Below, piece after piece: positions 1 through 10,688 of a stretch of 10,688 bases of DNA (position 1 is the first letter of the stretch; the number at the start of each line of letters is the position of its first letter). The notes under the pieces are model-generated. The model was not told the origin of the DNA. It saw only the letters and a program-made list of their open reading frames with translations, and ran no database searches. The position numbers were made by a program, and so were the translations under genes. The stretch covers positions 1 to 10,688 of the IMG/VR virus record IMGVR_UViG_2778261676_000006. One strand, 5' to 3'. This DNA comes from a virus. Its lineage: Duplodnaviria; Heunggongvirae; Uroviricota; Caudoviricetes.

Positions 1-996
1 TTATGGACGCATTATGGACATTCCTGACACCGGGTTAAGAGTCACAGCATCTTGTAAGAAATCCGGTGCAAAGTGTGCGTAGGTCATAGTTTGCTGAATG
101 TTAGAATGACCCAGGATGCGCTGCAATGTGATTATGTTACCTCCATTCATTATAAAATGTGTGGCAAATGTATGCCTCAAAACATGTACTGCTTGTCCGT
201 CAGGTAAATCGGGTTTTACTTCCCTGAGAGCGTTACGCACTTTGTAGTAACTGGCATTAAAAAGCCTGCCTGAATTTTTGGTCTTGATCCGTTTAATCAG
301 GTCCTGCGAAACGGGAATTGTCCTGCGTTTTCCGTTTTTAGTTTTCATAAACGTAACCATCTGGTTAATGATGTGTTCAGCTTTTAAATTAGCCACTTCA
401 CTCCAGCGTCCACCAGTAGAAAGGCAGACCAGAGTTGCATTTAATTCATCACCATCAAGCATGGATAACAGCCGCGTAATCTCTTCACTGGACAAAAAAG
501 CCATTTCCGTAACAGCTTCACGTAACCGTTTAATCTCACGGAACGGGTTGTGAGAGTGGTATTCACCGGCGTCAATTAACTTGGTGAACATCCCACTCAT
601 TATTGCCAGATGTCGATTTACGCTGGCTGGTTTTAGACCATCGTTCATCATTACAACGCGATAATCAGTTATCGTTTTCTTTGTTAGCTGGTCAGCTCTG
701 GACACTCCCATTTCTGCAAATTTGGCGATTATTGTCGTTAAACGCCCCCGTTCAATATCTCCACGCTCATGTGATTTTCCGTGATATATCCACCATCTGC
801 CTAACAACTCTGTAAGAGTTCGGCGGTCGGCTGGTTTCTCCAACCACTCTTTGTTGTGGTAGTTAACCAGTACATGACGTTCGAATGCTTGAGCTTCACC
901 TTTAGTTTTAAATTTCCGCCTGATACGTTTTCCATCTGCACCCTGCGGTCTGACGTCCACTTCATAACGACCATCATCGAGCTTTTTAATAGACAT
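1..996 (-). CDS. int: P2-type tyrosine integrase (site-specific recombinase, phage integrase family)
   Basis: 331-aa ORF. C-terminal catalytic box HVLRHTFATHF...LQRILGHSNIQQTMTYAHF (conserved R/H/R/Y pattern of tyrosine recombinases). N-terminus MSIKKLDDGRYEVDVRP matches P2 Int as I recall it. Lies directly downstream of the repressor on the same strand, as in P2. Confidence 0.9.
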   Translation of the reverse strand: MSIKKLDDGRYEVDVRPQGADGKRIRRKFKTKGEAQAFERHVLVNYHNKEWLEKPADRRTLTELLGRWWIYHGKSHERGDIERGRLTTIIAKFAEMGVSRADQLTKKTITDYRVVMMNDGLKPASVNRHLAIMSGMFTKLIDAGEYHSHNPFREIKRLREAVTEMAFLSSEEITRLLSMLDGDELNATLVCLSTGGRWSEVANLKAEHIINQMVTFMKTKNGKRRTIPVSQDLIKRIKTKNSGRLFNASYYKVRNALREVKPDLPDGQAVHVLRHTFATHFIMNGGNIITLQRILGHSNIQQTMTYAHFAPDFLQDAVTLNPVSGMSIMRP

Positions 997-1089
997 AAAG
1001 CCCTCCGATGACGCTGTTAACTTCTACTACTTGAAAATTAATGCAATTTTCTTTCGTACATTTACTACACACATATGCTGAATAAATCG

Positions 1090-1389
1090 TCAGCCAGTCT
1101 TCTGGTCTGAGTGGTGCAAGGTTGTTGAGTCTTGCCCAATGTGTGCGAGAGCCGGGGCTATTTGTCCAGCTGCTGGATCTGTTTCATCAAACATGAACCA
1201 GTCACGATACTTGCGAAAGCGTGGATGCTTAAACAGCTTCATACCTGCTTCCATAGGCATTTTTGATTTTCCTGATTCATATCCATGATATGTGTAGTAA
1301 TTAATTCCAATTAATTCAGCAAGTTCCTTAGTTTTAAGGCGTTCGGATTCACGGATGAGCTTTAGTTTCTCACTTTGTTCACTTGACAT
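1090..1389 (-). CDS. C: P2 C-type immunity repressor (small HTH repressor)
   Basis: The track ORF 1090..1407 uses a TTG start. The internal ATG at 1389 gives 99 aa (MSSEQSEKLKLIRESE...), the length of P2 C. The C-terminal half GQIAPALAHIGQDSTTLHHSDQKTG closely resembles the P2 C C-terminus as I recall it. HTH-like segment LKTKELAELIGINYYTYHGYESG. Sits between int and the divergent cox gene. Confidence 0.75.
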   Translation of the reverse strand: MSSEQSEKLKLIRESERLKTKELAELIGINYYTYHGYESGKSKMPMEAGMKLFKHPRFRKYRDWFMFDETDPAAGQIAPALAHIGQDSTTLHHSDQKTG

Positions 1390-1407
1390 AATTTTGCTAA
1401 TCTCCAA

Positions 1408-1482
1408 TTATATTGTTACTTGGCAATTTGTGATTCACTCAAAAAGGCTCTAGATGGCTCCAGTTGGTGAATCGCAAATCTT
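1408..1482. promoter_or_regulatory. Divergent early promoter/operator region (Pc/Pe-like) between C and cox
   Basis: 75-bp AT-rich spacer between divergent genes. A TATAAT hexamer reads on the minus strand at about 1407-1412 (plus strand attata). Direct repeat aGGCTC / tGGCTC at about 1445-1450 and 1455-1460 (10-bp periodicity) flanks a TAGAT -10-like element on the plus strand, reminiscent of the direct-repeat operators bound by P2-family C repressors. Confidence 0.4.
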
Positions 1483-1497
1483 ATGGAGGATAGCAAA

Positions 1498-1854
1498 GTG
1501 ACGACAAATGTAGAAATTTCTTGTCCAACTAGCGATGAGGCAAGTTTCGAAAATGAAGCCAAACGTAAAAGCATTCAGATTTCAGAGCGCCCATCTGATT
1601 TGCTGTCGAAAGAAGGTTTTGCTCTTTACATCGGTAAGACACCACGCGCGGTGGCTGAAATGGCTAAAGCAGGAAAGCTGCCAGCCTTCTACATGACAGA
1701 CCCATTAAAACCAAGAGGGAAAGCTGAATTATGGATTAATCGCCGTGAGTGGGACAAGTACGCAGCCCAACTGGTTGATGAAGCTCCGACAGAATGGCAT
1801 GACTGGAAAAATCGCATTAGTTACAGCAAATCAAGACATGGCCGTGCGGCTTAA
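1498..1854 (+). CDS. cox: Cox-like excisionase / early-promoter regulator
   Basis: Track ORF 1483..1854. GGAGGA at 1485-1490 followed 7 nt later by in-frame GTG 1498 suggests the real start. Segment GKTPRAVAEMAKAGKLPAFYMTDP resembles the winged-helix core of P2 Cox (GKLPVIDMTDP as recalled). First gene transcribed divergently from C. Confidence 0.6.
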   Translation: MTTNVEISCPTSDEASFENEAKRKSIQISERPSDLLSKEGFALYIGKTPRAVAEMAKAGKLPAFYMTDPLKPRGKAELWINRREWDKYAAQLVDEAPTEWHDWKNRISYSKSRHGRAA

Positions 1855-2035
1855 GGTGGAAAGGATGAACGAGCCTCGTTGTATTGCTCTGTTATTGCGT
1901 AACGAAAGCCCCAGGGCGATTGACTTCACCATCACCCACGGGAAGGGACGCAAGGGAATCATTATCCGTACCAAAAAACAGAGTCCGTTAAAAAAGGCTC
2001 TGACCTTTCTGAAAAGCCGGAGGGTCTGGAAATGA
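1799..2035 (+). CDS. Small early-region protein (P2 orf78-like position), start uncertain
   Basis: Open frame 1745..2035 ends with ATGA overlap into gene B. Candidate starts are ATG 1799 (78 aa), ATG 1838, or ATG 1865 (preceded by AAGGTGGA, the best SD). The stop is firm; the start is not resolvable from sequence alone. Confidence 0.35.
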   Translation: MTGKIALVTANQDMAVRLKVERMNEPRCIALLLRNESPRAIDFTITHGKGRKGIIIRTKKQSPLKKALTFLKSRRVWK

Positions 2036-2532
2036 CAGTGATGACGCTTAACCTCGTCGAAAAACAGCCAGCAGCCATGCGCCGGATAATTGGTAAGCAT
2101 CTGGCCGTCCCTCGCTGGCAGGAGACATGTGATTATTATAATCAGATGATGGAACGCGAACGGCTAACGGTTTGCTTTCATGCGCAGTTAAAACAGCGTC
2201 ACGCAACGATGCGTTTTGAAGAAATGAATGACGTCGAACGTGAACGGCTGGTTTGTGCAATTGATGAACTGCGTGGGGCATTCTCAAAACGCCGTCAGGT
2301 TGGCGCAAGTGAGTATGCATATATTAGTTTTTTAACAGTCAGTCAGCGTCGCACTTTATTTATGCACGCACGACTGACAGAAAAAGAATTTAACCAGCCA
2401 TACTGGCGAATTAATGAGGAATCATGTTACTGGCGTGATGCTTTATTCCGTGCATTACGTGAATTATTCAGCCTGTTTGAGTATGCACCGACAATTCTGA
2501 CGTCGGTAAAACCAGAGCAATATCTGCATTAA
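2032..2532 (+). CDS. B: Replication gene B protein (P2 gpB family, DnaB helicase loader)
   Basis: 166-aa ORF; the sequence MT.MTLNLVEKQPAAMRRIIGKHLAVPRWQ...FEYAPTILTSVKPEQYLH matches P2 B protein as I recall it, and the length is the same. SD GGAGGG lies upstream; the start overlaps the upstream stop (ATGA). Confidence 0.85.
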   Translation: MTVMTLNLVEKQPAAMRRIIGKHLAVPRWQETCDYYNQMMERERLTVCFHAQLKQRHATMRFEEMNDVERERLVCAIDELRGAFSKRRQVGASEYAYISFLTVSQRRTLFMHARLTEKEFNQPYWRINEESCYWRDALFRALRELFSLFEYAPTILTSVKPEQYLH

Positions 2533-2552
2533 ATAATTAACCAGAGTTTTTA

Positions 2553-2581
2553 ACGCACTTAATCGTGCGGGGCTTCTTTTT
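2553..2581 (+). terminator. Weak hairpin plus T-tract between B and the next ORF (possible attenuator)
   Basis: cgcac-ttaatc-gtgcg 5-bp stem followed by gggcttcttttt. Short stem and interrupted T-run, so weak at best. Confidence 0.2.
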
Positions 2582-2595
2582 GCCTGGAGAAAGTC

Positions 2596-2820
2596 ATGCA
2601 TACAGTTTCTGAAAATCAGTGCGGTAAATACGCATTACTGCTGCAACAGGCCAGAACCGAAGCACAGGCCGACGCTGCGACGCGCTTTTCTTCTCATCTT
2701 GACGCCATGATTCGCCATATCACAAAGGCGGAGTTATCCCGCGTGGAGATAGTCGAGCTGCTCAGTCAGGAGTCGGAAAAATTTCACAATATCGGATTGT
2801 CTCGCGGGGAGGTGCTTTGA
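2596..2820 (+). CDS. Hypothetical early-region protein (P2 orf80-like position)
   Basis: 74-aa ORF with SD GGAGA upstream of ATG 2596; same strand and spacing as the small ORFs between B and A in P2-like phages. Confidence 0.65.
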
Positions 2821-3119
2821 TGTCCTGTTCTCATTCAATTGTATTACTGAATAACGCCTTAAAAATCGCCGTTATGAAAAATGGCGATTTATCTCTTATT
2901 CAACTTTGTCTTGATAAAGAAAAACGCGACATAACTGAATCTGTTATCGCGATTTATCAGAATGAATTAAACCTCCTGTCTGATATGGTCAATTTACTTG
3001 TTAAACGCGCTGTGTTCCACAAGCAAATTTCCTCAGTGGATGAACTGACAAAATTAACGACAGAACTCGCCAGTTATTGCGCTGATGTATCCAGGAAACT
3101 TAACGATAAAAGGAGCTGA
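2820..3119 (+). CDS. Hypothetical early-region protein (P2 orf81-like position)
   Basis: Track ORF starts at TTG 2817; ATG 2820 overlaps the upstream stop (TGATG), with SD GGGAGG upstream. About 99 aa. Confidence 0.65.
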   Translation: MSCSHSIVLLNNALKIAVMKNGDLSLIQLCLDKEKRDITESVIAIYQNELNLLSDMVNLLVKRAVFHKQISSVDELTKLTTELASYCADVSRKLNDKRS

Positions 3120-3121
3120 TA

Positions 3122-3223
3122 ATGCCGGACAACGTAGATTTTATTCAGGAACAACAGGCTGAATTACTGGAGCGCCAGATTAACGCGGCAAGGGTAAAAC
3201 ATTGCGGTGTTTCTGCGCTGGTT
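3122..3223 (+). pseudogene. 5' fragment of orf82-like gene (probable TraR/DksA-type zinc-finger protein), truncated at a deletion junction
   Basis: Good SD (AAAGGAG) and ATG 3122. The N-terminus MPDNVDFIQEQQAELLERQINAARVKHCG looks like the start of a TraR/DksA-like small protein, but the C4 zinc-finger cysteines never appear. After about codon 34 the frame continues as an out-of-frame reading of gene A sequence up to 3538. Confidence 0.45.
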
Positions 3224-3993
3224 ACCGTGAACTACGCAAATTGCCTCGCGGCGTCAGCATTGCTGATGAGTTTGACGAGCGCGTCGAGGCTGCACGCGCC
3301 GCCGCAGACAGTGGTGATTTTGCGCTGTATATCAGCGCGCAGGGCGGGGCAAATGTCCCGCGCGATTGTCAGACTGTCAGGGTCGCCCGTAGTCCGTCGG
3401 ATGACGTTAACGAGTACGAGGAAGAAGTCGAGAGAGTGGTCGGCATTTACGCGCCGCATCTCGGCGCGCGTCATATTCATATCACCAGAACCACGGACTG
3501 GCGCATTGTGCCGAAAGTGCCGGTCATTGAGCCTTTGACTTTAAAAAGCGGCATCGCCGCGCCTCGGAGTCCTGTCAATAACTGTGGAAAGCTCACCGGT
3601 GGTGATACTTCGTCACCGGCTCCCACGCCTTCTGAACACGCCGCAGCAGTGCTTAATCTGGTTGATGATGGTGTTATCGAATGGAATGACCCGGAGGTCG
3701 TGAGGGCGCTCAGGGGTGCATTAAAACACGACCTGAGAACGCCAAACCGTCAGCAAAGAAACGGAAGCCCGTTAAAACCACATGAAATTGCACCATCGGC
3801 CAGACTGACCCGGTCGGAAAGAATGCAAATTACCCGTATCCGCGTTGACCTTACTCAGAACGGTATCAGGCCGCAGCGATGGGAGCTTGAGGCGCTGGCG
3901 CGTGGCGCGACCGTAAATTATGACGGGAAAAAATTCACGTATCCGGTCGCTGATGAGTGGCCGGGATTCTCAACAGTAATGGAGTGGAAATGA
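3221..3993 (+). pseudogene. A: 3' fragment (about 258 codons) of P2-type replication initiator gene A, lacking the N-terminal two-thirds
   Basis: The 263-aa open frame has no credible start (opens at TTG 3202 inside the orf82 frame; no SD or ATG near its 5' end). The sequence ...YRELRKLPRGVSIADEFDERVEAARAAADSGDFALYISAQGG...TVMEWK matches the C-terminal region of P2 gpA as I recall it. Full-length A is about 760 aa. Confidence 0.7.
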
Positions 3994-4445
3994 TGGCAAA
4001 AATTCACGAGGTAAAGCTGCACGCAAAATATTTTGACCTTGTGCTGGAAGGAAAGAAACGCGCAGAGTTTCGGAAAAATGACCGTAATTATGAGCGCGGG
4101 GACACGTTGATTTTGCATGAATGGGTGCAGGGTGTGTATACGGGGCGAAAGGTTGAAGCCCGGATAACAGATGTTACTGACTTGTCAGACTGGCTGGAAG
4201 ATTATGTCTTGCTAAGTATTGAGCTGCTTAATACAGGCGCATATGAGTTTGTGAACTGGAAAGAACTTAGTGAGCGTGGTCTGGTATTCAGAATTAATCA
4301 TGAAATTATGCATCAGCTCGGCCTTGCTGTTGTGTATGAACCAGAGACGGGGATGTCTGGCGGGGCAGTGGTTGGTGCGGATGGGATATGGAACTATTCA
4401 GATGAACAGGTGGAGCGTGCACAGCAAAACGGGTGGCTTGGATAA
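3990..4445 (+). CDS. ASCH/DUF3850-like (PUA-fold) protein
   Basis: Track ORF 3957..4445; ATG 3990 overlaps the stop of the A fragment (ATGA). N-terminal KIHEVKLHAKYFDLVLEGKKRAEFRKNDRNYERGDTLILHEW resembles ASCH/DUF3850 domains common in phage early regions. Confidence 0.65.
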   Translation: MMAKIHEVKLHAKYFDLVLEGKKRAEFRKNDRNYERGDTLILHEWVQGVYTGRKVEARITDVTDLSDWLEDYVLLSIELLNTGAYEFVNWKELSERGLVFRINHEIMHQLGLAVVYEPETGMSGGAVVGADGIWNYSDEQVERAQQNGWLG

Positions 4446-4651
4446 TGCACAGAATACCAGGCGAGATACCGCAGCATAAAACTAAAAATATCAAGCTGAT
4501 GGCCATTGTTCACCGTCTACAGCAGATTATGGTCAACGAAAATCTGACGCCCGATGAGCTAGTCGGGTGTGCCGAAATAGTCCGGGATAATTACGTATGG
4601 CTTAACTATATCGGTCAGCCCAGCGCTGCACCGCCACCACGCAGACGATAG
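4445..4651 (+). CDS. Hypothetical small protein (68 aa)
   Basis: ATG 4445 overlaps the upstream stop (TAATG); GC-rich like the phage backbone. No recognisable motifs. Confidence 0.4.
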   Translation: MHRIPGEIPQHKTKNIKLMAIVHRLQQIMVNENLTPDELVGCAEIVRDNYVWLNYIGQPSAAPPPRRR

Positions 4652-4840
4652 AGAACGCAGCCAGCTCAGGATTGGCGGGGGATAGAATAACGAGCATAGT
4701 GATGCGATTAGACAAACAGACTGACTGGTACACTTAGGATGGTTATAGTGGTTTCTAAGTGCTTTAGCGATACATCTGGTGGACTGTTTTACCAACCTCA
4801 GAGTTAGCTGAATTTTTAACAAAATACCATTTTGATAGAT

Positions 4841-4869
4841 TTGCCTAATTTATTAATTAAACTATACTG
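4841..4869 (+). promoter_or_regulatory. Candidate sigma70-like promoter for the + strand cargo operon
   Basis: TTGCCT (about 4841-4846), 16-nt spacer, TATACT (about 4863-4868), in an AT-rich stretch about 90 bp upstream of ATG 4960. Confidence 0.3.
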
Positions 4870-4959
4870 GACTTATACACAGTGTTCTGTTAATTGTTAG
4901 GTTGGTAAGATATTGTGAGGAGGTGATTACTATCTTGGCATCAATCAAGTGGAGGTTAA

Positions 4960-5196
4960 ATGATGAATATATTTGAACGTATTATAGGTAAAGCTGCTAT
5001 TGAAAAGGAAAGAGAACTGGCGAGGAGGCTTGAAGCATCTGGAACAAACACTGTTGAGGTGGTAGGTCGAGGCGCGATTATCACGTCTAAAGAAGACTTG
5101 GCAAGCTCAGATACAGTAAAATTGATGAAAATTAAAGCAAGAAAAATAGTTTCTGAGCAGGTAAAGCAAGAAGAAAAAATGGCTAAAGGGAATTAA
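4960..5196 (+). CDS. Small charged soluble protein (78 aa), first gene of a two-gene cargo operon
   Basis: GGAGG at 4951-4955 precedes ATG 4960/4963. Lysine/glutamate-rich, no TM segment. The stop is 2 nt before the start of the next gene. Low GC. Confidence 0.6.
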   Translation: MMNIFERIIGKAAIEKERELARRLEASGTNTVEVVGRGAIITSKEDLASSDTVKLMKIKARKIVSEQVKQEEKMAKGN

Positions 5197-5198
5197 TA

Positions 5199-5960
5199 AT
5201 GTTTGCTTTATTAATTATTCCATTACTTGTGAGTGGTTATATTGTATTAACCACTCATCCTTATCATTTCTATAGATTACACCGTTATGATGGGCAGTTG
5301 TTATATATGAAGTCAGCCGCCTTTGGTCTGTGGTGTTTTATATGGACATTGATTATAGCTTACTTAATAAAATGGATATGTCCGAGCTTCCATCCTGTCA
5401 CGATGGTTCGGGAACAATTAGATCTCAAACTTAGTGACAATGGTACTGAAAGAATCATAGGATGGATGATTTTACTTTCATGTGGAACGATATTTTTGGC
5501 TTGGATATGGAGTGTCGGTGCTAGATATTTGGTTATATATAGAGCTAAAATTATAAATTATATCCAAGGGGTAAAGGCTGCCAATATTGATTATGAGAAT
5601 CTTGTCATGCTAAGGATGAGGCAAGAGCTTATTAATGATAATCCAATGGATGAAATATTTTTTGATTCGTTAGTTGATAGACGTTCAATACTTATTACGT
5701 TGCAAAATAAAAAGACATATGTAGGAATTGTTAACGCATTAGGTGAGCCTAACGAGAAAGAAGGACCTAACCAGTATGTTTCAATCTATCCTATTATCTC
5801 TGGGTATAGAGATAAGGATTCATTGAAAGTAATCTTGGTGAATGAATATAGAGAGCTTGAGGATGCTGATACTAGTATCATCTTTCCACTAAAAGAAATT
5901 TCGCAAGTTTCTTGGTTTGATATGGATATTCATAAAATAGTTGAAAATAATAAGGTGTAG
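5199..5960 (+). CDS. Predicted integral membrane protein (3 N-terminal TM helices plus a soluble C-terminal domain of about 145 aa)
   Basis: 253-aa ORF. Hydrophobic segments FALLIIPLLVSGYIVL, AAFGLWCFIWTLIIAYLIKWI and IIGWMILLSCGTIFLAWIWSV. SD AAAGGGAA upstream; tightly coupled to the upstream gene. Low GC. Confidence 0.7.
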   Translation: MFALLIIPLLVSGYIVLTTHPYHFYRLHRYDGQLLYMKSAAFGLWCFIWTLIIAYLIKWICPSFHPVTMVREQLDLKLSDNGTERIIGWMILLSCGTIFLAWIWSVGARYLVIYRAKIINYIQGVKAANIDYENLVMLRMRQELINDNPMDEIFFDSLVDRRSILITLQNKKTYVGIVNALGEPNEKEGPNQYVSIYPIISGYRDKDSLKVILVNEYRELEDADTSIIFPLKEISQVSWFDMDIHKIVENNKV

Positions 5961-5963
5961 TAA

Positions 5964-5988
5964 ATGGTCACCTATAAAAGGTGACCAT
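5964..5988. terminator. Bidirectional intrinsic terminator between the convergent cargo operons
   Basis: Perfect 9-bp inverted repeat ATGGTCACC-tataaaa-GGTGACCAT, followed by a T-run on the + strand (ttattttt) and flanked by an A-rich stretch (T-rich on the - strand). Sits exactly between the stop at 5960 (+) and the stop at 5994 (-). Confidence 0.55.
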
Positions 5989-5993
5989 AATGC

Positions 5994-8258
5994 TTATTTT
6001 TGACGAATCCTGATTTTTGGTTGTTCACGAACAACAATATCAGTTTCTTTCCAACCAAGATTATTTATTTCAACCTCGGCTTCGTTGTAGACTGTAGTAG
6101 AATTGGCAAGAGATCTTAACGTAATAGCCAATACAGCACGTTGAGGTGAAGATAGAGGCTCTTGCTCTGCTCGTCTCTGAACATCAAGTTTAAGTCTCCA
6201 TTGCTCCCCATTTATACCTTGCGGAAATTGTTTTCTATAAACTTTGACTGGAGACCATTTGAAGCCATTTTCTATCAGTACCTTTTCAAATAATTCACTC
6301 TTTTCTTTTATTTGTGGAATTTTTCCGCTATGTATCCATTTAGCGTTAACTGGATCATAAGTGTAAGTCCCGAATGACACATCCACATTAGAACGGCAAT
6401 ATTCGGATGGGTAGTCATAATCAAGCGGTGGAGAATAAACGAGTGTCATAATAATTTCACCTGTGAATTTTCCATCCTCAGTACGTAATGACTGTGGTAT
6501 TACAAATGGCGTTCTACTGAATTCAATACCTTCTCGGGTATCTATTTCAAATAGAAATGTAATCTCATTTTTATTGCAACCAATAATATCATTTATATGA
6601 TCGCTTGGGCGTCCAAATCCTTGATAATTAAACGCATAATGCTCCGTTTTGGCTGGTGAGTTTTTTAACGCAGAATGAATTAATAGTGCCTTGATACGTT
6701 CAGGCGATGGTGAAATAGAACCATTAACATCTAGTTCATGCCACAGTGATGCCGCTAAACTTGAGATTAACGGTGCTGATAAACTTGTGCCAATACTTTC
6801 GCAAAGAGCATTGTCCTCGCCAATAGCTATGATTCCGGTATGTTCACAGTTTAATTTACTGTCACAATTACCTCCAAAGTGATTTATCTCTGGTTTGGGT
6901 ATAAAGGCTGGGCCGGGACCTCTTCTAGAAAAAGATGAAGGTTCAAATCTTTTGACCACAGAGTCAGACGATTCTAAATGGGCAACTGAGCCAACAGTTA
7001 ATGAACGAACAGAATCTGCGGGGGCTGATATTCTGTCATGCCCACCTAATTCTTGAGGAGGCCAGGTTCGTTGAGGATCATAAATGTAGTTGCCGGATGC
7101 TACGACGAAAAGACAATCATGCTCATCATGAAGTGCATTTAAAAAATGCCCCAATTCAGAGAAGCTGTCTTCAGAACATGGGGATTGACAACCTAATGAC
7201 AGATTCCATACACGTACTTCTGGATAGGTGGTCACAGCCTCTCGGATAGCTTTCATTAATTGTGGCAATTTGAGCGTACCATCTTTGGGAAAGGCTGCAA
7301 CATCAACAATTTCAGCTTGGCATTGAGGAAAACCAGCATAGTTATTCAACCATCTTCCATTAATTGCTAAACTTGCAACCATGTTCCCATGAGAATAGTC
7401 GTGTTCTCCTTTTACTAAATCTAAACTATCCCAAATCCATGGCCTAAGTATGTTGTTATTGGGATCGACTCCGCTATCTATAATTCCGAGTAGTGGATAA
7501 TGTTTATCCTCTTGAGGTAAGGGAAAATCATCTAGGTCTAGAGTTTCAGCAGGAATATATTGCGATACTGTATGAGTAAGACCAAATGTTGGCATAGGTT
7601 CTAATTTTCGTATGCCAATAAAACTTGCCAGTTGGGCGATGTTATCATTCCCTTTTACTTCATATATACTCAAATCTGAACTGATATCATACTTTTTGGG
7701 TTTTTGTATTCCTAGTTCATCTGCAAATTCCATTAATTCTTTGTCGATACTGCGGTTAGTTGTTCTATCTTTATGGTCAAAGAGTTTCAGAAGAAAACTA
7801 TCTGATTTATTTTTATCTATAACATCATGGTTAAGACTAAAAGGTTCGATCTTTTCAATTACAGCAATATGTACTGTCCCATTATGAGAATTAGTGCTAT
7901 TTTCAATTTTTTTGCGAAGTTGTGCTAACCCTTTTTCAGTAACACTTATAAGTAATTCTCCAAAATTATCACTGCCTATTACGGGACATGTATTATCACC
8001 TAATAGGCTTGATGGGCGATGTGACTTAGCAAGAGCTTTTTCATGAAGAGTAACTCTAGCCACCGCCGGTATATTGGGCCATTTTTTAAATGAGCTCTGG
8101 AAAAAATTTTTAACGTCATCGACTTCTTGTTTGAGTCTATTTTTTAGACTAGTTGTTACTGTTCGGATAGGTTGTTTCTTTCCGAAATTATATGTTTTTT
8201 CAGTAAAATCTTGAGGTGTCGCCTCAATTATTTTTATTGGTCTTTCTTTGTTACTCAT
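5994..8258 (-). CDS. ietS: S8 subtilisin-family serine peptidase, cytoplasmic, with extra N- and C-terminal domains (IetS-like)
   Basis: 754-aa ORF. S8 catalytic motifs in canonical order: Asp LLGIIDSGVD, His HGNMVASLA, oxyanion Asn VVASGNY, Ser GTSLSAPLISSLAA. No N-terminal signal peptide (MSNKERPIKIIEATPQDF). The start overlaps the stop of the upstream ATPase (ATGA at 8255-8258). Confidence 0.8.
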   Translation of the reverse strand: MSNKERPIKIIEATPQDFTEKTYNFGKKQPIRTVTTSLKNRLKQEVDDVKNFFQSSFKKWPNIPAVARVTLHEKALAKSHRPSSLLGDNTCPVIGSDNFGELLISVTEKGLAQLRKKIENSTNSHNGTVHIAVIEKIEPFSLNHDVIDKNKSDSFLLKLFDHKDRTTNRSIDKELMEFADELGIQKPKKYDISSDLSIYEVKGNDNIAQLASFIGIRKLEPMPTFGLTHTVSQYIPAETLDLDDFPLPQEDKHYPLLGIIDSGVDPNNNILRPWIWDSLDLVKGEHDYSHGNMVASLAINGRWLNNYAGFPQCQAEIVDVAAFPKDGTLKLPQLMKAIREAVTTYPEVRVWNLSLGCQSPCSEDSFSELGHFLNALHDEHDCLFVVASGNYIYDPQRTWPPQELGGHDRISAPADSVRSLTVGSVAHLESSDSVVKRFEPSSFSRRGPGPAFIPKPEINHFGGNCDSKLNCEHTGIIAIGEDNALCESIGTSLSAPLISSLAASLWHELDVNGSISPSPERIKALLIHSALKNSPAKTEHYAFNYQGFGRPSDHINDIIGCNKNEITFLFEIDTREGIEFSRTPFVIPQSLRTEDGKFTGEIIMTLVYSPPLDYDYPSEYCRSNVDVSFGTYTYDPVNAKWIHSGKIPQIKEKSELFEKVLIENGFKWSPVKVYRKQFPQGINGEQWRLKLDVQRRAEQEPLSSPQRAVLAITLRSLANSTTVYNEAEVEINNLGWKETDIVVREQPKIRIRQK

Positions 8259-9418
8259 AATATCTCTCTATAGTTCTTAGTTAGCCTTGACACTTTAGCA
8301 TTTGAAAGCCCTAGTATTTTTGCTATCTTTCGTATTGTAAATCTTTTGGGATTGTATTCTCTGAGAGTGGTCACAATCTTTATAAGTAAATTATCTTCTT
8401 CATCAAATGTAACTCCCTTCGCTTCTAAGATAGCCTCGACTAAAAATCGGGTATCGATTTGTTTATTATTGTAAACCAGAGCATGTCGCTCAGATCTTAA
8501 GCAGCATTGTTCTATAAATGAGCAGTTTAGCCCTGATGATATTTCCGCAAGGTCATCAACAAAATCGTCATATGTAGCTTTTATGTTTGAATATTGTTCA
8601 AATAGTTGTTTTCTGACTTCAAAATTAGGCAATCCAATAGATATTCTATACTCAAAGCGCCTCCAAACTGCGCTATCTAGAAGATTTTCATGATTACTTG
8701 CAGCAATCAATATTGTTTCTTCAGGTAGATTGTCAATATTTTGCAATAAAGAAACCACCACCCTCTTCAGTTCACCTAACTCATGCTGATCATCTCTAGC
8801 CTTTGCTAGAGAATCTAGTTCATCTAGAAATAAAACACATGGTGCTTTACTTGCATACTCAAATAGCTGCCTGATATTTTTAGAAGTAGACCCCAGATAT
8901 GATGAGACTAAGGAGTCACATCTTGCAGTAAGAAGCGGTAAATTTAGACAGGATGCAATATATTTTGATGTCAAGGTTTTACCACAACCTGGTGGCCCAT
9001 ATAAAATCATAGAGGATGTCACGCCAAGACCGGCATCCTTTAATTCTTTAGCTCGTTCAGTGAAAGTCAAAAATTCTTTAATTTTTTTCAGAGTGCTATC
9101 TTTCAACAATGGGAGTTGAATTTCAGAAGACGGTTGAGTTACGTCTGCTAAATCAAATTTAGTTTCTTTATCTACAGGTAATGTATCAAGACGTTCAAAA
9201 ATAGGTGATGTACTGCGTGATACTTTCTGCAAGTTAAACGTGTTTTTATCTTGAATACTACCTCTAATGGCTGAAGCAAGCTCAGGCAGCCCCATAGAAT
9301 CATAGGAACGCGCGAGTTTCGAAGCCTGCCGAACAAAAGCAACTTTATCCCCTTTGAGTCCAAGACTGATAAGCTGCGAAAGTATCTCGTTTGTGGTCAT
9401 TTGTGATACAAACCTCAT
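8255..9418 (-). CDS. ietA: AAA+ ATPase with C-terminal HTH-like tail (IetA-like)
   Basis: 387-aa ORF. Walker A GPPGCGKT (about 8975-8998), Walker B CVLFLDELD, sensor-1 LIAASNHEN, probable Arg finger in VWRRFEY. C-terminal IRKIAKILGLSNAKVSRLTKNY resembles a helix-turn-helix. Translationally coupled to the downstream S8 peptidase. Confidence 0.8.
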   Translation of the reverse strand: MRFVSQMTTNEILSQLISLGLKGDKVAFVRQASKLARSYDSMGLPELASAIRGSIQDKNTFNLQKVSRSTSPIFERLDTLPVDKETKFDLADVTQPSSEIQLPLLKDSTLKKIKEFLTFTERAKELKDAGLGVTSSMILYGPPGCGKTLTSKYIASCLNLPLLTARCDSLVSSYLGSTSKNIRQLFEYASKAPCVLFLDELDSLAKARDDQHELGELKRVVVSLLQNIDNLPEETILIAASNHENLLDSAVWRRFEYRISIGLPNFEVRKQLFEQYSNIKATYDDFVDDLAEISSGLNCSFIEQCCLRSERHALVYNNKQIDTRFLVEAILEAKGVTFDEEDNLLIKIVTTLREYNPKRFTIRKIAKILGLSNAKVSRLTKNYREIL

Positions 9419-9600
9419 TAATCTGTTGTCTAAATGGCTTATAGGTGAGACAAATTTCTATTTTAATGTAGTTTATATGTATTTTGGTGAAACGAACACT
9501 ATGTTTTACATAAATCTTTCAGGTTTGGAGTTCTTGGAGGGCATAGAGTTGCATCAATTTGCATTCTAATTAGACTTTTTTATTGCTATCGTATTCTACA
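9419..9600 (-). promoter_or_regulatory. AT-rich upstream region, presumed promoter of the ATPase-peptidase operon
   Basis: About 180 bp of AT-rich non-coding sequence upstream of the ATPase start on the minus strand, with several -10/-35-like hexamers; no single promoter can be assigned by eye. Confidence 0.3.
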
Positions 9601-9659
9601 TGTGACTAGGTCTGCCCTTCCTGATGCGTTTGCATTAAAACCTCCCCATGAAGCGGGCG

Positions 9660-9678
9660 GGCGAGGCGGGGAAAGCAC
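9660..9678. other. cos site (19-nt cohesive-end sequence of P2/P4 type)
   Basis: GGCGAGGCGGGGAAAGCAC matches the P2/P4 cohesive-end sequence as I recall it. It lies where cos is expected, between the cargo and the portal-side end of the genome. Confidence 0.6.
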
Positions 9679-9810
9679 TGCGCGCTGGCGGTGGTGCTGA
9701 TTTTATTTTTTCAGCGTCTGAGCGCGTCGTGATGGCGTTTAGATTGTGTTCCGGGGCCTGCGGGATGTTTTGCGCGGAGGTGAGCGTGTGAGGGCGTGAT
9801 GACGGGGTGT

Positions 9811-9832
9811 AAAAAAGCCGCCCGCAGGCGGC
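9811..9832 (-). terminator. Minus-strand intrinsic terminator (in P2 would end the leftward portal/terminase operon)
   Basis: On the minus strand: GCCGCC-tgcg-GGCGGC hairpin followed by TTTTTT (plus strand reads aaaaaa gccgcccgcaggcggc). Confidence 0.45.
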
Positions 9833-9938
9833 GATGTTCAGCCGTTGTCAGTGTCCAGTGAGTAGTTTTTAAAGCGGATGACCTCCTGACCGAGCCAGCC
9901 GTTTATTTCCCGAATCCTGTCCTGTAGCCTCCCGTAAC

Positions 9939-10688
9939 AGGCTGGAAGCCAGTGTCGCTCCGTCACTGGCCGGAATTAAAATCCCGCACATCGACCAGTC
10001 GCAGGAGTCTGATGCAAAATTCCTGACCCGCCTTGCTGAACGCAACGGCGGTGAGGTGTCGGTAAAAATGGGAAAATTGTTGTTTCTCAAAGCGGGGCAG
10101 GGGGTGACGGCCAGCGGTAAAAAAATCCCGCAGATTACCATCGCCCGCAGCGACGGCGACCGTCATCATTTTGCGATTGCTGACCGTGGAGCCTACACCG
10201 GCGTAACGGCAAAGTGGTTACACACCAAAGACCCGAAGCCACAAAAGCAGAAGGTAAAACTGAAACGCAAAAAGAAAGAGAAACACCTGCGCGCACTGGA
10301 GCACCCGAAAGCGAAACCGGTCACGCAGAAGAAAGCGCCAAAAGTACCGGAAGCGCGCGAAGGTGAATACATGGCCGGTGAGGATGACAATGTTTTTGCC
10401 CTGACCACGGTATATGCCACGAAAGCGCAGGCCATGCGCGCCGCTCAGGCGAAGTGGGATAAACTGCAACGGGGCGTTGCGGAGTTCTCCATCAGCCTGG
10501 CTACCGGTCGGGCAGATATTTACACGGAAACACCGGTTAAGGTGTCAGGCTTTAAGCGTGTCATAGACGAGCAGGACTGGACCATCACTAAGGTGACACA
10601 TTTTCTGAATAATAGCGGCTTCACGACGTCCTTAGAGCTTGAGGTCAGGCTTTCTGATGTGGAGTACGAAACAGAAGATGATGAGTGA
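9939..10688 (+). pseudogene. D: 5'-truncated tail gene D (P2 gpD / phage late control D family), C-terminal part only
   Basis: The frame opens right after a stop at 9936-9938. The sequence IKIPHIDQSQESDAKFLTRLAERNGGEVSVKMGKLLFLKAGQG...SLELEVRLSDVEYETEDDE matches the C-terminal region of P2 gpD as I recall it (full length about 387 aa). The first standard start is GTG 10056 (track ORF 10056..10688). Only about 260 bp separate it from cos, with no N-terminal coding sequence. Confidence 0.75.

Follow-up and report, generated by a model that had tools for sequence, protein, structure and literature searches.

The early operon of a P2-like (Peduovirus) prophage of E. coli is interrupted within the stretch of DNA that we analyzed (10,688 nucleotides; hereafter the window), where the 5' end of orf82 runs directly into the 3' third of the replication initiator gene A. 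We hold with high confidence that this arrangement is a genuine and recent 1,900-bp illegitimate deletion, which joined codon 34 of orf82 to codon 506 of A. An earlier note on the same letters had proposed an orf82-A deletion junction with a switch into A at about 3221-3224; the two arms indeed lie 1,900 bp apart in intact relatives, with full-length orf82, orf83 and A between them, and alignment puts the breakpoint at 3222/3223. The feature is real and the reading given in that note is supported; in biological terms we have a pseudogene of the ordinary kind in a cryptic prophage, a product of ordinary prophage decay. The gene order characteristic of P2-like prophages, int-C-cox-B-orf80-83-A-orf91-cargo-cos-Q...D, is kept in the window apart from two deletions (Table 1); from orf78 onwards to the right, the sequence matches P2-like phages and prophages at 95-100% identity. 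The immunity region (int, C and cox) is 66-70% identical to that of P2 and Wphi and 98-100% identical to that of three prophages: the one in E. coli DCE7, and two referred to here as L013 (GCA_002230755.1) and L015 (sample SRR3993833).

The left arm, positions 1-3223, is P2-like prophage sequence running from int to codon 34 of orf82, and the right arm, positions 3222-9926, picks up at codon 506 of gene A. When compared with P2, Wphi, DCE7 and L015, the arms overlap by 2 bp (TT, 3222-3223); in a base-by-base display the left homology ends with ...GCGCTGGTT at 3223 and the right homology starts with TTACCGTGAAC at 3222. Local blastn placed window 1851-3223 on P2 orf78 through orf82 and the sequence from 3222 onwards on P2 gene A. 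In a megablast of positions 2800-4500 against phage records the match likewise set in abruptly at 3222; it fell inside genes that the records of P2, Wphi, L-413C and many other phages label A or "nicking at origin of replication". Aligned with P2, Wphi, DCE7 and about 1,600 E. coli genomes, the window takes up gene A at 3222, which puts the junction at 3222/3223. Each arm is 95-100% identical to relatives over hundreds to thousands of bases (E = 0), and this two-arm match is not due to chance. Relative to P2, DCE7 and L015 exactly 1,900 bp are missing, comprising orf82 codons 35-74, the whole of orf83 and A codons 1-505.

Since 1,900 is 1 modulo 3, orf82 and A are fused out of frame. The good Shine-Dalgarno sequence and ATG that the earlier note ascribed to the orf82-like frame are present (AGGAG; Table 1), and this frame enters A out of register as described there: the resulting 138-aa ORF has 34 true orf82 codons followed by A sequence read in the wrong frame to its stop, and an exact protein look-up of the 138-aa fusion returned no match on record. 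The frame of A itself is open from 3202 to 3993 (263 aa from a TTG start), with A sequence proper limited to 3223-3990. It runs from codon 506 (TAC at 3223) to the stop at 3991-3993 and thus retains 256 of 761 codons, close to the first estimate of about 258 of roughly 760. That this frame has no usable start, as had also been claimed, agrees with its content: the upstream TTG at 3202 is the sole in-frame candidate ahead of A sequence and has no Shine-Dalgarno sequence, the internal Met503 is deleted, and the first ATG comes at 3823. The only likely translation product at the junction would be the 138-aa nonsense fusion made from the orf82 ribosome-binding site, and the A remnant would be an untranslated pseudogene fragment. 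Even the fusion ORF is probably mostly silent, since the early operon would be off in the repressed state.

Table 1 Features of the 10,688-nt window, with deletion junctions and truncated genes
Feature	Position	Strand	Remarks
int (331 aa), intact	1..996	-	99.7% aa identity to DCE7
Immunity repressor C (99 aa), intact	1090..1389	-	100% aa identity to DCE7
cox (Phage_Cox PF10743), intact	1483..1854	+	Early operon gene 1
orf78-like ORF			Between cox and B
Replication gene B (166 aa), intact	2032..2532	+	
orf80 (DUF2732), intact	2596-2820	+	
orf81 (DUF5405), intact	2820-3119	+	
AGGAG Shine-Dalgarno sequence of orf82	3111..3115	+	6 nt upstream of ATG 3122
orf82' codons 1-34	3122..3223	+	TraR/DksA-type zinc-finger gene
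Deletion junction 1	3222..3223		TT microhomology; 1,900 bp missing
'A codons 506-761 and stop	3223..3993	+	Without catalytic domain, without Met503
Out-of-frame tail of 138-aa fusion ORF	3224..3538	+	Stop 3536-3538
P2-type origin region, 57 nt	3536..3592	+	Identical in window, P2, Wphi and DCE7
orf91-like gene (DUF3850/ASCH), intact	3990..4445	+	Overlaps A stop as in intact phages
IetS (S8 peptidase), intact	5994-8258	-	PADLOC full-length, E = 1.1e-273
IetA (AAA ATPase), intact	8255-9400	-	PADLOC full-length, E = 1.3e-131
cos cohesive-end sequence (19 nt) GGCGAGGCGGGGAAAGCAC, retained	9660..9678	+	
'Q, portal gene, last 29 codons and stop (89 nt)	9838..9926	-	
Deletion junction 2	9926..9927		Blunt; 20,629 bp missing vs DCE7
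'D, tail gene D codons 135-387 and stop	9927..10688	+	3' two-thirds

The deleted stretch takes in all catalytic elements of A. In P2 A as well as in DCE7 A, Pfam assigns residues 133-462 to the Phage_GPA domain (PF05840). The HWH motif of P2 A occupies residues 399-401, and its Tyr450 and Tyr454 fall within GYIAKYI (449-455). A passage of PMC3986222, citing Odegrip and Haggard-Ljungquist (2001), identifies the two tyrosines of motif C as the active site of P2 A. Domain, HWH motif, both tyrosines and the internal Met503 all belong to the deleted part. The remnant from residue 506 matched no Pfam family and has neither the catalytic domain nor the active-site tyrosine pair of an HUH initiator, which bears out the claim that the element lacks a functional rolling-circle initiator. 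Orf82 has fared no better: the zinc finger of the P2 protein (C4; PF01258) lies at residues 34-64 of 74 and is gone from the window, and the 34-aa stub had no Pfam match and does not qualify as a TraR/DksA-type protein.

The origin itself was spared. The P2 ori lies within gene A, as a passage of PMC3986222 states with reference to Liu and Haggard-Ljungquist (1994). The nick annotated at P2 29892 (NC_001895) maps to window 3566, within GCGCCTCGGAGTCC, and a four-way alignment of the window with P2, Wphi and DCE7 has 57 consecutive invariant positions at 3536-3592. The suggestion that the P2 origin in the 3' part of A may have been retained is therefore well founded as far as the nucleotide alignment goes, and the window keeps a P2-type origin sequence without its initiator. 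No A-mediated nick would be available to start P2 rolling-circle replication, though ori and B are intact; without nicking at ori replication could not start, and an excised copy would be lost by dilution.

As for how the deletion arose, no direct or inverted repeat of at least 8 bp was found near either breakpoint of junction 1. The search for short direct repeats recommended in the earlier note thus yielded only the 2-bp TT, an overlap such as about 16% of random junctions would show by chance. A repeat-mediated event was rejected on these grounds, and the deletion at junction 1 is accordingly classed as illegitimate. We also considered, and rejected, a deletion mediated by the A protein and ending at the ori nick, as 344 nt separate junction 1 from the nick downstream of it.

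The window is 100% identical to contig NONG01000007.1 of assembly GCA_002518955.1, in which int adjoins the host gene pflA and which ends 23 nt past the D stop. The exact 263-aa ORF is present on three contigs (NCBI, Logan) with the same gene neighbors, the evidence for junction 1 coming from assemblies. The closest complete genome is that of E. coli DCE7 (NZ_CP090611.1), which has a full prophage between pflA and pflB; it is 98.4% identical to the window over 1-3223, 99.3% over 3222-9926 and 97.1% over 9927-10688, and has orf82, orf83 and a 761-aa A standing between the left and right arms. Apart from the truncated genes, all window genes are full length, with 94-100% amino acid identity to DCE7. 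Codons 1-34 of orf82 are 97% identical to DCE7 at the amino acid level and 100% identical in DNA to L013 and L015. Both prophages share the chromosomal site of the window element and match it with 100% identity over 1-3223, but have orf82, orf83 and A intact. The lack of a single substitution over 3.2 kb relative to these intact prophages indicates that the deletion is very recent and restricted to one lineage.

Junction 1 occurs in none of 5,426 complete E. coli genomes, and exact-pattern scans did not find it among GTDB species representatives, in IMG/VR (which was scanned for this junction) or in JGI metagenomes. Its absence from these large collections marks it as a rare allele. A known defective P2-type prophage of a laboratory strain, such as E. 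coli B, was likewise rejected as the source, since neither junction is found in any of the 5,426 complete genomes.

The same rarity could be read as a sign of an assembly artefact, in which the contig misjoins parts of P2-like prophages and the real orf82-orf83-A region is intact. The window comes from a draft contig that stops 23 nt beyond D, junction 1 was encountered in none of the large collections searched, and E. coli genomes with a match to the region have it at a median of 2 places and at as many as 8, so that more than one P2-like prophage could share a genome. The arms, however, have only 2 bp in common and no repeat of at least 8 bp near either breakpoint, which would leave an assembler without a basis for the misjoin; the same 263-aa product and neighborhood recur on the three NCBI and Logan contigs; and a clean second deletion, together with similar derivatives elsewhere, fits real decay. 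We judge such a chimera to be very unlikely and keep to a genuine deletion.

A protein search with the A remnant brought up many proteins of 248-266 aa, 50-73% identical, that begin with MGAYRELRK, corresponding to internal Met503. Together with a frame that is open over 263 codons, they invite the reading that the roughly 260-aa C-terminal frame of A is functional, either as a stand-alone gene or through a programmed -1 frameshift from the truncated orf82, possibly with a role in interfering with the replication of incoming P2-like phages. The genomic settings of these proteins speak against it. In one pair of loci (L005/L006), a remnant combines the truncated A with AAA_13 cargo and a portal gene that is truncated too (L005 10001-14543), and homology to A reaches back to residue 476, upstream of the called Met. 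In another (L007), A is both truncated and frameshifted, with homology from residue 453; in a Serratia genome (L008; GCA_052219335.1, 10001-13311) the truncated A and two cargo genes stand alone between host genes; and a further locus (L009) is a rearranged remnant. Because the homology extends upstream of the called Met, the proteins of about 255 aa are first-ATG calls on truncated genes, and a stand-alone gene for the A C-terminus was rejected, as the MGAYRELRK proteins sit in remnants or frameshifted genes. In the window even this Met503 is deleted; upstream the frame has only the TTG at 3202, with no Shine-Dalgarno sequence, and its first ATG comes as late as 3823.

The frameshift version fares similarly. 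There is no slippery heptamer of the form X XXY YYZ at the junction (CTG GTT ACC), and the arrangement, seen in 0 of 5,426 genomes and in none of the three further collections, is conserved nowhere in the material searched; a programmed frameshift was therefore rejected. The earlier note had itself allowed that the 263-aa frame might prove to be a complete protein in related phages, or the region an intact gene with a programmed frameshift. Neither is the case: the seemingly complete proteins are calls on truncated A, and the junction is neither slippery nor conserved. A functional C-terminal frame of either kind thus seems exceedingly improbable, and we continue to regard the A frame as the debris of a deletion.

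Two more loci add breakpoints of other kinds. On contig 9220 of Logan SRR9333242 (L011, 3159-4457), two distinct internal deletions have put orf82 codons 1-46 in frame with A. The resulting 432-aa protein lacks the catalytic domain, and elsewhere on this contig the terminase gene is truncated and a deletion affects the late region. In a P2-like prophage on CADHDY010000129.1 of NCBI assembly GCA_902846645.1 (L012, 6125-6200), cox is fused to A in a 195-aa ORF. On the right the deletion ends exactly at the annotated ori nick, where GCTCG in cox and CCTCG at ori overlap by 4 bp (CTCG); such an endpoint is what one would expect if the A protein itself had cleaved and joined DNA aberrantly at a pseudo-nick site. 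Truncation of A is common in P2-like remnants, with L005/L006, L008, L009, L011 and L012 as independent cases. Within complete E. coli genomes the 3' third of A occurs at 1,934 places in 1,682 genomes and the 5' and middle part at 1,902 places in 1,622 genomes, which as a rough background puts 3'-only remnants in a few per cent of carriers. Judging from the L008 and L005 remnants, the cargo region and the sequence directly beside it may be what persists longest as P2-like prophages decay.

The second deletion is larger. Blunt junction 2 joins codon 316 of Q to codon 135 of D with no microhomology, and the 20,629 bp lost comprise most of Q, codons 1-134 of D and every other late gene ahead of D. 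With them have gone the lysis genes and the whole set of morphogenesis genes, so neither lysis nor particle formation would be expected. Junction 2, too, was found in none of the 5,426 complete E. coli genomes, and neither among GTDB species representatives nor in JGI metagenomes. To say, as the earlier note did, that the element probably cannot replicate autonomously understates the defect, as the 20.6-kb deletion also removes nearly all late genes. We estimate the remnant at about 11.1 kb, from a DCE7 prophage of roughly 33.6 kb less 22.5 kb. What it retains is ori, B, int, cox, C, cos and the IetAS cargo; ori and cos are both kept, cos with its flanks intact, and A and all packaging genes are lost. 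The two deletions leave a cryptic remnant with immunity (C), int and cox, cos and an intact IetAS pair. Prophage domestication usually takes this course, shedding lethal and replicative functions and keeping cargo that benefits the host.

The cargo is a predicted IetAS defense pair. The IetS and IetA genes are adjacent, with a 4-nt overlap, at the position of the P2 tin/old cargo hotspot, and their proteins are 99.7-100% identical to the DCE7 pair. Three conserved ORFs between orf91 and IetS, of 68 aa (4445-4651), 78 aa (4960-5196) and 253 aa (5199-5960), are 100% identical in DCE7; they have no Pfam hit recorded in the source contigs and no PADLOC match, and could be further cargo or IetAS accessories. 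L013 (13386-19217), whose left arm is identical to that of the window, has other cargo, namely a reverse transcriptase and an AAA/SMC-like ATPase, as well as an AAA/TIR-like gene inserted where its own late region is deleted; it illustrates the swapping of cargo on an identical backbone. Elsewhere in the early region, the cox ORF comprises 123 aa in the window and its relatives, with the Phage_Cox domain confined to residues 31-111. P2 Cox has 91 aa and one assembly calls cox at 118 aa; translation may really begin at an internal codon.

An estimated length of about 11.1 kb is about one third of the P2 genome and near the size of P4. With int, C, cox, B, the ori nick site and cos intact and IetAS on board, the element might be imagined as a helper-dependent, P4-sized, mobilizable defense island, which an infecting heteroimmune P2-like phage would mobilize: its own Int and Cox would excise it, helper A would act at ori in trans, and it would be packaged from cos as multimers. 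Classically, though, P2 A acts preferentially in cis, so rescue by a helper in trans should be inefficient. Such cis-action, for which our literature search gave indirect support at most, is consistent with the work in PMC11719329, where P2 A serves to attach a protein covalently to the DNA template that encodes it. The window also has no satellite-type replicase, capsid-size determinant or helper-activating gene, both deletions stop at arbitrary positions inside genes, and the allele is on about three contigs with no sign of spread. A mobilizable island is, in our view, highly improbable, and decay by two deletions remains the preferred account.

Deletion-inactivated cryptic prophages with defense cargo are well known, and what is new here is this allele only. 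Its significance is modest: it captures a cleanly resolved and very recent step of prophage decay, in which replication, morphogenesis and lysis are gone and immunity and the IetAS cargo are intact. As a natural ori-plus, A-minus derivative of P2, it could serve to measure how strict the cis-action of A is. In annotations of this assembly, the 263-aa "replication endonuclease" ORF ought to be marked as a pseudogene fragment and the prophage as defective.

In comparison with known systems, the window stands closest to P2 (NC_001895; A at 28034-30319), to which positions 3222-4213 are 96.4% identical and with which it shares the order orf80-orf81-orf82...A-orf91. P2 A is a full initiator, whereas the window keeps codons 506-761 of 761, without PF05840, HWH or Tyr450/454. 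DCE7 shares with the window the pflA-int side, the immunity region and the IetAS cargo; unlike the window, DCE7, L013 and L015 have complete orf82, orf83 and A (761 or 756 aa), and DCE7 also the whole late region. L011, L012, L005/L006, L008 and L009 resemble the window in having lost the catalytic part of A and kept the A 3' end that flanks the cargo. The breakpoints of L011, L012 and the others are nonetheless independent, and the window junction differs in being out of frame and 344 nt upstream of the nick. The cryptic P2 remnant of E. coli K-12 consists of ogrK and a 3' fragment of D beside ogr; the name "prophage P2 remnant" is also used in an annotation. It represents the end stage of the same process, of which the window is a much earlier stage that still holds int, C, cox, B, ori, cargo and cos. 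P4 is an element of about 11 kb with an integrase and a cos site recognizable by the P2 terminase, and the window element resembles it in size (about 11 kb), integrase and cos. It differs from P4, however, in having no primase-helicase replicase, no sid or psu and no helper-activating regulators, its other ORFs being P2 early genes, IetAS and small ORFs of unknown function, so that it does not qualify as a P4-like satellite. The window element is P2 itself with deletions and not a distinct satellite lineage.
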